From a phage, in sequence record PZ168832.1: DNA of 64,000 nt; one strand, given 5' to 3'. Positions within the stretch are counted from its first letter, which is position 1; each line of letters starts with the position of its first letter. A model generated the notes under the pieces. It was not told the origin of the DNA. It saw only the letters and a list, made by a program, of their open reading frames with translations, and did not search any database. A program made the translations under genes and the position numbers. This document shows positions 420 through 5,302 of the stretch, piece by piece.

Positions 420-1415
420 TTATTTATTAGCAATATAAGCAAATTTTTGATAGTTATTTGCTTTGATGAGTTTTTCAACTTCAACAAGGTCATGAGCTAC
501 GTCATCAAGCAAGATGTTGCGCCATGTAGCGAATCGGCCAACACTGAATACGTTCAAATCCATAGTCAGCTGGAGCAGTAAGGCGTGTCGCAAGTCTTTC
601 GGAATGTCGACAATCTTGCCATATTTCTGGTCGACCTTTTCAACTTCTTCAAGAGCAATGTCACTCCATGAGAGGCCAAAGGCTGTCAATACTTCGTCAA
701 CTTCTGCACGCAACTTAATGTCACGGTAACGAGTGATGCCGCCAGCGGCTTCAATTGCGGCTTCACTTACGCTAACCAAAGGAATTGTTTCAATGATCAA
801 TGTGTCGCCAGTGATTGATGCGCGGTAAGTTCTGACGGAGTAGTCAGGAAAGTAAATGGTTTGATACAGTTCACACTTGCGTTTAATCTTAAAGCGGTAA
901 ACACGAATGTTTGCCTTGTCGAATGAGAAATCAATCTTTTGATCAATCCCAGCAAGCTTCATTATGACTGGCAGCGGCGATGTGTTGATGATTGGCGTCT
1001 CGCTATAGCCGCAAAGAGTATCAACAGGAGTATTAAAGAATATGCGGTCACCCAGTTTGTCGACAAGCTGATCATAAAAGTCATCAGGCGCAATATAACG
1101 CGTTGCAGTTTTAAGCTTCATGATTGAACGGCTGCCAAACTGATTGGTGACCTTCATGGAATACATGTTGGCAAGGTTGATTGGGCAATGGTCGTGGTAG
1201 TAGTTGCCGCGAAAATACACAGCCTTGTCAACTGTCACTGCCTTAAAAGGGATTCCGGTAATACGGCTTACTTCTTCGCCGCGAAAGCGTAGCAGCGCCT
1301 TGTGCTGTGGCGCTCGCTCCCCTGCTTCGTACACAATAGAGTTCGGGAAGTGACACGCGGTAATAAGTCCTGCCAAACCGCCGCCGATAATCATTACAGG
1401 TTGTTTCATGTTCAT
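420..1415 (-). CDS. FAD/NAD(P)-binding oxidoreductase, UDP-galactopyranose-mutase / amine-oxidase-like
   Basis: N-terminal dinucleotide-binding motif MIIGGGLAGL (GxGxxG) and C-terminal GRFATWRNILLDDV resembling the GR..Y..MD flavoenzyme motif. ATG at 1415 and 1409; AAGGA RBS is better spaced for 1409. Confidence 0.6.
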   Translation of the reverse strand: MNMKQPVMIIGGGLAGLITACHFPNSIVYEAGERAPQHKALLRFRGEEVSRITGIPFKAVTVDKAVYFRGNYYHDHCPINLANMYSMKVTNQFGSRSIMKLKTATRYIAPDDFYDQLVDKLGDRIFFNTPVDTLCGYSETPIINTSPLPVIMKLAGIDQKIDFSFDKANIRVYRFKIKRKCELYQTIYFPDYSVRTYRASITGDTLIIETIPLVSVSEAAIEAAGGITRYRDIKLRAEVDEVLTAFGLSWSDIALEEVEKVDQKYGKIVDIPKDLRHALLLQLTMDLNVFSVGRFATWRNILLDDVAHDLVEVEKLIKANNYQKFAYIANK

Positions 1416-1468: not shown

Positions 1469-1494
1469 CAAGTCATTTCTATTTAGTACAGACG

Positions 1495-1521
1495 AAAAAA
1501 GACCCACAACAAGTGTGGGTC
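1495..1521 (-). terminator. Rho-independent terminator after the Lys/Ala/Glu-repeat gene
   Basis: Perfect 8-bp stem GACCCACA/TGTGGGTC with 5-nt loop, followed on the minus strand by TTTTTT. Confidence 0.5.
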
Positions 1522-1549: not shown

Positions 1550-2389
1550 TTATTCCGCTTGATCACCGTCTTCGGCATTGTCGTTGGATTCAACATCGAC
1601 AAACTCGATGTGTCCCATCTCTTCCAGCTTGCTCAGGTAGGAGCGAACGGAAGCGCCAAACAGTTGATCTTTAACTTTCTCGCCCAGCTCATCGATAGAC
1701 TGTGCCACGCCAACTTCGCCTTCTTTGATCGCCGCCAGAACGCGTCCACGGGTGGAATGCTCTTGCGGCTGGCTCAGGCCATTGCCAGTGTAGATGAAGT
1801 GAGTGGCTTTTGCACGACGCTGACCGTTTGCCTTTTTAGCAGCCTTGCGCTCTGCGATAGCTTTGCGACGTTCTTCAGCTTCTTTCTTACGCTGTTCTTT
1901 CTGCTGTTCCGCAGCTTCTTTCGCCGCAATCTTAGCAGCTTCACGCTCTGCCTTGCGTTTCGCCTTGGCTTCTTCTTTGGCCTTCTCTTTTTCGGCCTTC
2001 GCTGCAGCACGGGCTTGATCACGCTCTGCTTTCTTAGCAGCAGCCTGCTCTGCTTTCAGGCGCTTGGCTTCTTCTTTAGCCTTTGCCTTTTCGATTTCTT
2101 TTGCTGCTTTAGCGGCTTCACGCTCTGCTTTCTTAGCAGCAGCCTTTTCTGCACGCTCTTTAGCTTTCTTAGCTGCTTCTTCAGCACGCTTCTGAGCCTT
2201 CTCATCAGCAGCCTGTTTGCGCTTCAGCGCGGCTTCTTCACGCTTGGCTTGTTTTTCCTGCTCACGCTTCTGGCGTTTTTCTTCGGCTTCTTTCTTTTTA
2301 GCCAGGCGTTTTTCTTCAGCCACGCGACGACGTTCTGCTGCGGCTGCTTGTTTTTCTTCTTTAGATAATACTTTGATTGCTTCGGCCAT
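1550..2389 (-). CDS. Lys/Ala/Glu-rich low-complexity protein with a C-terminal globular domain (histone-H1-like / nucleoid-associated candidate)
   Basis: About 200 aa of KAE repeats (AEKAAAKKAEREAAKAAKE...), then a roughly 80-aa non-repetitive C-terminal region. ORF-track start at 2395 is GTG; ATG at 2389 has an AAGGA RBS 8 nt upstream. Confidence 0.6.
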   Translation of the reverse strand: MAEAIKVLSKEEKQAAAAERRRVAEEKRLAKKKEAEEKRQKREQEKQAKREEAALKRKQAADEKAQKRAEEAAKKAKERAEKAAAKKAEREAAKAAKEIEKAKAKEEAKRLKAEQAAAKKAERDQARAAAKAEKEKAKEEAKAKRKAEREAAKIAAKEAAEQQKEQRKKEAEERRKAIAERKAAKKANGQRRAKATHFIYTGNGLSQPQEHSTRGRVLAAIKEGEVGVAQSIDELGEKVKDQLFGASVRSYLSKLEEMGHIEFVDVESNDNAEDGDQAE

Positions 2390-2548
2390 ATTCACAGTCC
2401 TTAAATAAATTAGTTTATTTTATATTCCCCGTTTGGGATAACTTAATTATGCCTTCAGTCGCCGCCAGTAGCAACTAAAAACTATGGCGGCAATGCCACT
2501 TTAATTAAACTGATTTTCAGTTTTATTTTTCGTAAATTTACGTCAACA

Positions 2549-4219: not shown

Positions 4220-5302
4220 ATGGCTAGTTTAAGAGAAGAAGCAAAAATAATTGAAGAGTTTTTAACAGAACTCCAAAGAGGCATCCCAGAAGATGAGCGC
4301 GTCATGACGGTGTTTGCTCCTGAAGCAACGGTACAGACCGACGAGCGCGGCAAGAAGATCAACAGCAGCTTCTGGCCTAAGCCTTGGAAGTTGGGCAAGC
4401 CGCTCATGCAGCACCAAAACGGCTATGCGTGCATCAGTTCAATGCGTAAGTCTCCCAACCCAAAGACGGGTGAGATGCGATACTGGCGTACAGAGTCGGC
4501 CTTTGGTCACGGTATGGCGATGATGGTCGACGACATCGGCCACGGTAAAGGGTCCAAAGGCGATTTAGATTTGGAATTCTTTTTCGAGCGACTGAAGCCG
4601 ACTGTCATTGTCGAGACGTCACCGAACAACCACCAGCTTTGGTACTTCTTTAAAGAGCCGATTGACCATCTTATTCAGTTCAAAGCATTCCTTGGGTCTT
4701 TCGTAAACATGGTACTCAAGAAGGGCGGCGACAATACGATTAAAGACGTGACGCGCGTGGGCCGTGTTCCTGGGTGCATCAACAACAAGCGTGTGACTCA
4801 CGACGGCCCCTATAAATATGTCGATGAGAACGGCGACCCGTTCCGCTGCCGACTTGTCCATGCAGACTACTCCTTGCGCTACACCATCGAAGACATCTGT
4901 CAGGCATTTGGCTTTCACGTCGTTATGTCGCAAAAGCGTGAGATTCAAATTGACGTCGATGAATACAAGTACGATGCTGTTTGGTATAAAATAGCCCAGC
5001 AGATTCTAGCGCGCAACAAAATGGGTGAAGGGTCTGATGGCGACGTCATCGAGAACATGTCAGGCAAGTGCCGCATAATCTGTCCTTGGGGTGAAGAACA
5101 CACCAACGGCGACCCGTATGGCGCTTATTTTCGCGGCCCCATCCCTGGTGCTGAACATGAATTCGTTTTCGGTTGCGCTCACGACTGTCACCGGAAAGGG
5201 GAAGGCAAGAAAGGTTGGACCGCTTTTGTTGAAGCAGTAGTCATGCCTTATATTGAGAATCAACTTGATATGATAAATCGTCGCGCAGGTGGCATAAAAT
5301 AG
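4220..5302 (+). CDS. Primase-polymerase (archaeo-eukaryotic primase superfamily, Prim-Pol type)
   Basis: Motifs consistent with Prim-Pol: acidic MVDDIG, SPNNHQLWYF (sG.G.H-like), DVTRVGRVPGCINNK (D...R.PG..N.K); Cys/His-rich C-terminus. Confidence 0.6.
   Translation: MASLREEAKIIEEFLTELQRGIPEDERVMTVFAPEATVQTDERGKKINSSFWPKPWKLGKPLMQHQNGYACISSMRKSPNPKTGEMRYWRTESAFGHGMAMMVDDIGHGKGSKGDLDLEFFFERLKPTVIVETSPNNHQLWYFFKEPIDHLIQFKAFLGSFVNMVLKKGGDNTIKDVTRVGRVPGCINNKRVTHDGPYKYVDENGDPFRCRLVHADYSLRYTIEDICQAFGFHVVMSQKREIQIDVDEYKYDAVWYKIAQQILARNKMGEGSDGDVIENMSGKCRIICPWGEEHTNGDPYGAYFRGPIPGAEHEFVFGCAHDCHRKGEGKKGWTAFVEAVVMPYIENQLDMINRRAGGIK

Follow-up and report, generated by a model that had tools for sequence, protein, structure and literature searches.

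In the linker histones H1/H5 a winged helix is joined to a long Lys/Ala-rich segment, of the kind also known from the bacterial H1-like proteins AlgP and Hc1, and peptides of the H1 tail, when bound to DNA, form helices that carry all of their lysines on one face. Helices with longitudinal charge stripes are known from another set of proteins, the group 3 late embryogenesis abundant (LEA) proteins, the apolipoproteins and α-synuclein, which contain hendecad (11/3) amphipathic repeats. The gene described here lies on the minus strand of a phage DNA of 64,000 nucleotides (sequence record PZ168832.1; this whole stretch is called the window), and its product is predicted to be a winged-helix protein with a charged helical extension. 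It is tentatively proposed to be an abundant, lineage-specific, DNA-associated architectural protein of the PB1-like myoviruses. The parts of the gene and of its product on which this proposal is built are the following.

1550–2389, minus strand: coding sequence of 279 amino acids plus stop (open reading frame and translation, match to PHROG 4765, mass spectrometry peptides in the orthologue vB_Eco4M-7_83).
1832–2362, minus strand: K/R/A/E-rich predicted α-helix, residues 10–186, of approximately 26 nm (AlphaFold2 (AF2) model, periodicity, selection).
1802–1831, minus strand: conserved basic linker G-x-R-R-x-K-A-T-H, residues 187–196 (family alignment).
1598–1801, minus strand: winged-helix-like domain, residues 197–264, with the order β-H1-β-H2-H3-β (AF2 model).
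1553–1597, minus strand: disordered acidic tail, residues 265–279 (composition and low predicted local distance difference test (pLDDT) score).

The full-length AF2 model contains a single unbroken helix from residue 10 to residue 186, with pLDDT above 90 over residues 50–180, and its length was obtained from a rise of 0.15 nm per residue. The helix is not uniformly charged around its axis. Basic residues and charge recur with a period of 3.65–3.70 residues, and the observed power was reached in 0/300 and 1/300 shuffles. With the period set to 3.667, Lys and Arg make up 62–69% and Asp and Glu 0–6% of two neighbouring 60° sectors, and the opposite side is 27–41% acidic; Ala is distributed evenly round the helix, and the peak that Ala and the hydrophobic residues give at 6.2 residues is not significant (p 0.087). 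The same basic periodicity is significant in 16 of the 20 family members, and in five genera the best period falls at 3.68–3.69, with the acidic residues on roughly the opposite face and with a stripe phase that drifts slowly, by about ±35–55° around its mean, over the whole helix (approximately 170 residues). This stripe is not a by-product of composition, because domain II of E. coli TolA, which is very similar in composition, does not show the 3.68-residue charge periodicity. The basic stripe is thus a physical feature that is kept across genera as the sequence diverges, and it bears on the understanding of charged single helices in general.

A canonical heptad coiled coil was considered for this region and rejected: the coiled-coil check suggested in the initial annotation found no 3.5-residue hydrophobic a/d periodicity in the tract rich in Lys, Ala and Glu (KAE), where the charge period is 3.68. 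Since the heptad hydrophobic periodicity is absent, the helix is not a canonical coiled coil, and the model predicts a long helix with no hydrophobic seam. In its 178 residues there are 71 potential Glu–Lys/Arg pairs at i/i+3 and i/i+4; there is no enrichment of E→K at a spacing of i+4 (z −0.5), whereas K→E(i+4) and E→K(i+5) are enriched (z 3.2).

The conservation of the helix was evaluated by counting pairwise codon differences among five Wifcevirus orthologues and among five Pbunavirus orthologues. In Wifcevirus the helix region shows 8–24 synonymous and 0–2 nonsynonymous differences, with no indels, and the winged-helix region plus tail, which has half the length of the helix, shows 3–18 synonymous and 0–7 nonsynonymous ones. 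The Pbunavirus helix behaves in the same way (3–25 synonymous, 0–4 nonsynonymous, no indels), except in the near-identical pair 14-1/SN, which has no differences there; internal indels in this genus occur only in the acidic tail, and the sole other difference in length is at the annotated N-terminus. The number of repeats, whose variation among related phages was to be checked according to the initial annotation, does not vary within Wifcevirus or within Pbunavirus. These comparisons indicate that the helix is under stronger purifying selection than the globular domain, for its exact sequence as well as for its length. Drift and slippage are normal in low-complexity spacers, and a helix that is more constrained than the folded domain therefore argues against a passive linker or a freely drifting spacer. 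Of the long charged single-helix spacer offered as an alternative in the initial annotation, the helix is retained, given the continuous helical model and the absence of a heptad seam, and the spacer is abandoned, given the strong selection and the conserved stripe.

The helix is followed by the basic linker, in which R192 is invariant and R191, T196 and H197 are nearly invariant (20–24 family members), and then by the globular domain. The structure of the latter, predicted by AF2 from an alignment of 24 sequences, has a mean pLDDT of 86.6 (above 94 in the core) and consists of strand, helix 1, strand, helix 2, helix 3 and strand; the predicted model thus has the three-helix bundle on a small antiparallel β-sheet that defines a winged helix. 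The structure prediction that had been recommended for the C-terminal region therefore gives a winged helix with confidence. The positions that are invariant in the family are R192, Q209, S212, R214, G227, R249, K254 and L255. In winged helices, helix 3 is the usual recognition helix, and here it carries the conserved motif R-S-Y-L-S-K, with R249 and K254 as its invariant residues and with conservation also at S250, Y251 and S253. An invariant basic and polar surface of this type may be the contact for a partner that does not change, a polyanion such as the backbone of a nucleic acid. Most members have the acidic tail; about 5 of 24 lack it.

Searches for relatives of this domain outside its own family returned nothing significant. 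Foldseek against the PDB gave no match below E 0.86, and against BFVD, which holds predicted viral structures, it gave only members of the same family; searches of Pfam, NCBIfam and PDB sequences with the protein, the domain and the family profile were equally negative. The closest structural neighbours, none with a significant Foldseek E-value, are the winged-helix insert of MetAP2/Ebp1/Arx1, the RiPP recognition elements (RREs) and RPA32C. A weak match to YejK/NdpA (NA37) recurs (E 0.59 for the profile against the PDB; E of approximately 0.09 for Pfam NA37 in 2/24 members), and hhalign assigns it a probability of 30% over 40 residues (helix 1 and strand 2), which is half of the domain and below significance. 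Since the structural model is confident and the sequence, profile and structure searches are not significant, the fold class is clear and no relationship can be assigned at the level of families.

The composition of the product is in agreement with this division. Ala accounts for 23% of the whole product, Lys and Glu for 18% each and Arg for 9%. In residues 11–197 these four reach 86% (30% Ala, 24% Lys, 20% Glu, 12% Arg, next to 6% Gln), Pro is absent, hydrophobic residues other than Ala number only 7 out of 187, and the net charge amounts to +27. The composition of residues 198–265 is ordinary, and the charges of the C-terminal 14 residues add up to a net −6. Several elements of the initial annotation can be recognized here, some of them with new boundaries: the roughly 200 residues of KAE-rich repeat are indeed a low-complexity tract, of which the repeat-rich part covers approximately 177; the 80-residue non-repetitive domain exists, with a proper extent of approximately 68 residues (197–264) after the basic linker; and the acidic tail at the C-terminus stands. 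The repetition that was described at the level of DNA is also present, in the following form.

1821–2152, minus strand: weak 99-nt repeat (33 residues, nine helical turns) in about four copies (Tandem Repeats Finder and repeat search).

Tandem Repeats Finder reports a period of 99 nt with 1.9 copies and 78% match at 1964–2152, and a looser repeat family (D2) has four copies, at 1821, 1917, 2019 and 2118, spaced by 96–102 nt. The repeat unit of 33 residues equals nine turns and therefore keeps the stripe. The DNA repeats are real but modest, and the periodicity of the protein is the stronger signal.

The distribution of the family is narrow. The protein matches PHROG 4765, a group of unknown function, with E 1e-83 over residues 1–279, and its C-terminal 93 amino acids alone do so with E 1e-45. 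With these 93 residues, tblastn finds 357 phage records, 293 of which are Pseudomonas phages; the Pseudomonas matches listed are nearly all Pbunavirus, with 52–53% identity, and the other matches include Pantoea phage Kyle, Serratia phage MyoSmar, Burkholderia phage BcepF1, Xanthomonas phage XcP1 and Aeromonas phage Gekk3-15. Only 27 clusters came out of an exhaustive HMMER search through 1.84 billion representative proteins. A word-indexed protein search returned 2 fragments with the domain and 6 with the alignment, and the low-complexity full-length members seem to escape its index. All full-length members share the same plan, that is, an N-terminal region of 84–187 residues rich in Lys, Ala, Glu and Arg, the G-x-RR-x-KATH linker and a domain of approximately 70 residues. 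Three of the four distant metagenomic members examined are on phage-like contigs (two of 67–68 kb and one of 28 kb) that have the same replication module, and the contig of the fourth is too short to show its context. Because the scans yield 27 clusters with one shared plan, and because distant members lie in the same replication module, the family is, as judged from sequence, characteristic of a single viral lineage, that of the PB1-like myoviruses (Wifcevirus, Pbunavirus and their relatives). A literature search on histone-like, winged-helix and single α-helix (SAH) proteins of phages gave no article on the PHROG 4765 family. One member, a JGI metagenome protein, was named “flagellar biosynthesis GTPase FlhF” by its source, which is probably a mis-annotation driven by composition, like the name “TolA protein”.

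The 1.2 kb around the gene are 95–99% identical in DNA to 29 phage records, all of them Wifcevirus myoviruses of E. coli or Shigella (among others WFC, WFH, ECML-117, FEC19, Mansfield, vB_Eco4M-7 and Bas98-101), in which the gene is labelled “hypothetical protein” or “TolA protein”. The open reading frame as listed starts two codons earlier, from a GTG (1550–2395, minus strand); the ATG at 2389, with a ribosome-binding site (RBS) upstream, gives the product of 279 amino acids, and the same coding sequence of 840 nt is used in the annotated relatives. The minus-strand frame is real, since it is confirmed by homologues and by tryptic peptides from the near-identical phage vB_Eco4M-7 (98.3% DNA identity over the 1.2-kb locus). 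An open reading frame of 269 amino acids on the plus strand (1559–2368), rich in Phe, Leu, Ser and Cys, is not a gene; it is the shadow that the GCN/AAR/GAR codon bias casts on the opposite strand, and several shorter shadow frames occur in the other frames of the locus. The signals that surround the gene are given below.

2398–2402, minus strand: RBS AAGGA, 8 nt 5' of the ATG (read from the sequence; phage Mansfield has an RBS annotated at the equivalent place).
2446–2474, minus strand: predicted σ70-like promoter TTGCTA-N17-CATAAT, whose −10 element ends 56 nt 5' of the ATG (promoter scan and consensus match).
1491–1521, minus strand: intrinsic terminator with an 8-bp GC-rich stem, GACCCACA/TGTGGGTC, followed by TTTTTT, 29 nt past the stop (terminator scan).

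These signals recur in the lineage. A TTGCxx-N17-xATAAT sequence is found 49–75 nt 5' of the start codon in 6/7 genera, and the Pbunavirus KPP12 has a weaker TTCCCT-N17-GATAAT in the same place; in all seven genera a strong hairpin with a T-run comes just after the stop codon of the orthologue, and the records of WFC, WFH and Mansfield have a terminator annotated at the corresponding position. The intergenic flanks of the gene measure 90–185 nt in all seven. In these genera, then, the gene has the appearance of an insulated monocistronic unit, with a promoter and a terminator of its own predicted from the sequence. Within the coding sequence, all 25 Arg codons are CGT or CGC, compared with 65% in the other open reading frames of the window. 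With respect to the timing of transcription, the text of the ONT-cappable-seq article on phage 14-1 makes no statement at gene level about the orthologue.

The gene is located in a replication module. It lies directly 3' of the gene for a Dda-like helicase in the seven named genera and in 2/3 metagenomic contigs (two genes intervene in the third), and in most genomes it precedes genes for a Rossmann-type protein of approximately 330 amino acids, ThyX, PNK, an exonuclease and a Pol III α-type polymerase; a RepB-like primase is transcribed divergently relative to the operon region of the gene. The curated genome of the Wifcevirus Bas99 (PQ850618.1) encodes the Pol III α-type polymerase, the exonuclease, two primase-like genes and helicases of the Dda-like and SNF2 types, and has no single-stranded DNA-binding protein (SSB), other DNA-coating protein, clamp or recombinase annotated.

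The most direct information on the protein comes from mass spectrometry of CsCl-purified vB_Eco4M-7, in which gp83 (“TolA protein”) was represented by 7 peptides and 422 peptide-spectrum matches (PSMs) with an area of 3.1e9, and the portal by 559 PSMs with an area of 2.0e9 (PMC7048862). The unannotated proteins gp38 and gp41, which are among the most abundant, reached 3.6e10 and 1.1e11 (PMC7048862). The peptides of gp83 include residues 11–20 and the intact C-terminus (PMC7048862). Since a near-identical orthologue gives a signal at the level of the portal, with peptides near both ends, the protein is made and is abundant. Its association with the virion is uncertain. The glyoxalase-family protein gp77, from the same nucleotide-metabolism cluster, was found in that preparation at about the portal level (207 PSMs, area 2.7e9; PMC7048862), and this reflects either the carry-over of an abundant non-structural protein or the packaging of several proteins of the cluster. 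A virion-associated role had been set against DNA binding in the initial annotation; the orthologue does occur in CsCl-purified virions, and this occurrence does not contradict DNA binding.

Taken together, these observations have been read as follows. The protein probably binds phage DNA, a statement derived from the structural model. Anchoring on nucleic acid, most likely the double-stranded DNA of the phage, would be the task of three parts: the winged helix, the basic linker (G-x-RR-x-KATH) and the Arg-rich, conserved helix end. The basic stripe of the rod would lie along the DNA or bridge neighbouring duplexes, with the acidic face and the tail pointing away, where they might limit aggregation or recruit partners. 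The protein would act on replicating phage DNA, and some copies may travel with the packaged genome. The architectural role is possible and is the explanation that we prefer, tentatively, on account of the conserved surface, the charge stripe, the selection, the setting in the replication module, the absence of an annotated SSB in Bas99, the expression and the proteomics. Several facts weigh against it. DNA binding by members of the family is so far a prediction; the net charge of the helix in homologues is modest (−2 to +16 over 80–190 residues), unlike that of true polycationic nucleoid proteins, and the winged-helix core is about neutral (net −2 to +5), with an acidic tail. As for the proteomics, a DNA helicase and the glyoxalase-family protein, both non-structural, were present in the same vB_Eco4M-7 preparation (PMC7048862). 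The sample of ECML-117 contained only 2 peptides of the orthologue, no entry in the proteome of DNase-treated ghost particles of a Pbunavirus has a matching mass, and the texts of the cryo-electron microscopy articles on the virions of the Pbunavirus phages Pa193 and E217 do not mention the orthologue. A bolder version of the proposal, which is unlikely, is that of an unrecognised class of viral chromatin protein, in which a winged-helix anchor and a 26-nm rod, with its stripe along or between duplexes, would coat the replicating genome and be packaged at tens of copies per capsid. If this were true, the packaged rod would organise or space the condensed DNA, or else protect the genome from nucleases of the host as it enters, and the protein would be a helical, charge-striped functional analogue of the linker histones, and this in phages with wide therapeutic use.

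The position of the gene next to the helicase has suggested a different role, that of a replisome adaptor or ruler, in which the winged helix and the acidic tail would dock on the Dda-like helicase, the primase or the Pol III-type polymerase and the 26-nm helix would set a distance or act as a tether. The models for such interaction modules are RPA32C, PolB1-binding protein 2 and the acidic tips of SSB and T7 gp2.5, and neither they nor the adjacency raises this role above a low probability: the adjacency may simply be an inherited syntenic order, which is interrupted by two genes in one metagenomic contig, the tail is missing in about five of 24 members, and abundance at portal level in a virion preparation would not be expected of an adaptor. 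The invariant Arg/Lys/Ser/Gln surface and the stripe would also suit a polyanion better than a protein partner that co-evolves. That same virion preparation has led to a structural or entry role being considered, in which the protein would be packaged as an internal head protein, an ejected or protective co-injected protein, a scaffold or a ruler. Two Wifcevirus phages have yielded the orthologue from CsCl-purified virions, with an area above that of the portal in vB_Eco4M-7, and several Pbunavirus and Carpasinavirus records name it “putative structural protein”. However, this label could not be traced to data (the original records of PB1, 14-1 and SN say “hypothetical”, and the KPP12 paper sequenced three other proteins only), clearly non-structural proteins were co-purified in the analysed sample, and the gene, with its σ70-like promoter, belongs to a replication and nucleotide-metabolism module far from the morphogenesis genes. 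The peptide of residues 11–20 and the intact C-terminal peptide, moreover, speak against cleavage beyond approximately residue 10, and the silence of the Pbunavirus virion articles and the ghost-particle proteome mentioned above counts against packaging as well, which leaves this explanation rather improbable. The resemblance of the domain to the insert of MetAP2/Ebp1/Arx1, the most similar structure, which contacts rRNA near the ribosomal exit tunnel, raises the idea of an RNA or ribosome factor whose Lys-rich helix would bind rRNA or mRNA and bias translation; its probability is very low. The identification with TolA, an envelope protein, as given in several GenBank records under the label “TolA protein”, can be practically dismissed. 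The likeness consists in the Ala/Lys/Glu-rich, helical, low-complexity composition of TolA domain II, from which the label derives, and BLASTP against E. coli TolA reaches E 1e-32 with the composition correction off; under composition-based statistics the value is E 0.18, and because the match disappears in this way, the label is a compositional artefact. The phage protein has no N-terminal membrane anchor (its N-terminus is MAEAIKVLSKEEK, and there is no hydrophobic segment anywhere in it) and no C-terminal domain III or Pfam or NCBIfam match, and TolA domain II does not have the 3.68-residue stripe; the identity is thereby refuted. The probability that remains belongs to explanations beyond these.

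The surroundings of the gene deserve a brief description. The neighbour at 420–1415 (minus strand, 331 amino acids) has an N-terminal GGGLAG Rossmann motif and no Pfam match, and belongs to PHROG 4828, of unknown function; Mansfield annotates it as UDP-galactopyranose mutase (by HHpred), and in Kyle the counterpart is called an oxidoreductase. At least six genera encode, after the charged-helix gene, a protein of approximately 320–333 amino acids. The 331-residue neighbour adjoins genes for ThyX, a HAD/PNK phosphatase, an SDR reductase and a glyoxalase-family protein, which could form a nucleotide or DNA-modification cluster, and the Wifcevirus phages have been reported to be resistant to restriction and to replicate unusually fast (PMC11990801). 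The RepB-type primase is encoded at 4220–5302 (plus strand; Pfam E 5.5e-36), divergent from the helicase operon; Mansfield has a second, small RSF1010 RepB-like open reading frame a few genes downstream, and in Bas99 the next large one (1671 nt) is labelled DNA primase. A short GC hairpin with a T-run at 2484–2499 (minus strand), approximately 50 nt past the helicase stop and just 5' of the predicted promoter, may serve as a weak terminator and thereby insulate the gene against the helicase operon, and comparable hairpins are found 5' of the orthologue promoter in BcepF1, KPP12 and Gekk3-15. ARAGORN finds no tRNA or tmRNA genes in the whole window.

Evidently, a core gene of the PB1-like lineage, highly expressed and strongly constrained, has been annotated until now as “hypothetical”, “TolA” or “structural protein”, and the Pbunavirus members of this lineage belong to the phages that are used most in therapy against Pseudomonas aeruginosa. 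Three results are of use whichever role is considered: the TolA label is artefactual, the globular domain is predicted with confidence to be a winged helix, and the low-complexity region appears as a precisely conserved, charge-striped rod. An ignored low-complexity open reading frame thus becomes a testable candidate for the way in which PB1-like phages organise or protect their DNA.

Having described the protein, it can be compared with the systems mentioned at the beginning. The likeness to linker histones put forward in the initial annotation holds for the winged-helix fold class and for the invariant Arg/Lys/Ser/Gln positions, and does not extend to family membership, which was rejected (hhalign gives 7% against the H5 globular domain, and there is no match to PF00538 in Pfam). 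In comparison with H1/H5, the order of the domains is reversed, with the charged region at the N-terminus, and an acidic tail is present. The H1 tail is basic, disordered and contains Pro, whereas the phage region is 22% acidic and Pro-free and is predicted to be a stable helix of 177 residues, with pLDDT above 90. The parallel with AlgP (AlgR3), made in the same annotation, was not upheld: residues 11–197 contain no Pro and no repeats of the KPAA/AAKP type, and the only tandem repeat is the weak unit of 33 residues.

Other charged helices resemble the phage protein in different respects. The ER/K SAH domains of myosin VI/X, caldesmon and drebrin share with it a very long, seamless predicted helix with dense Glu–Lys/Arg pairs and much Ala, which favours helix formation, but in the phage helix the charges are split into a basic and an acidic face instead of alternating, E(i)→K(i+4) is unenriched and Ala reaches 30%. 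The hendecad proteins have a similar period, near 3.67, and their own longitudinal stripes; the phage helix has neither their hydrophobic face nor an 11-mer consensus, and it has a winged-helix domain attached. The winged-helix domain itself shares with the MetAP2/Ebp1/Arx1 insert, the RREs and RPA32C a topology in which an N-terminal strand completes the sheet, with identities of 4–17% (MetAP2/Ebp1/RRE) and 19% (RPA32C), and these neighbours bind rRNA, peptides or proteins in unrelated contexts, while the overall architecture of YejK/NdpA is unrelated to that of the phage protein.

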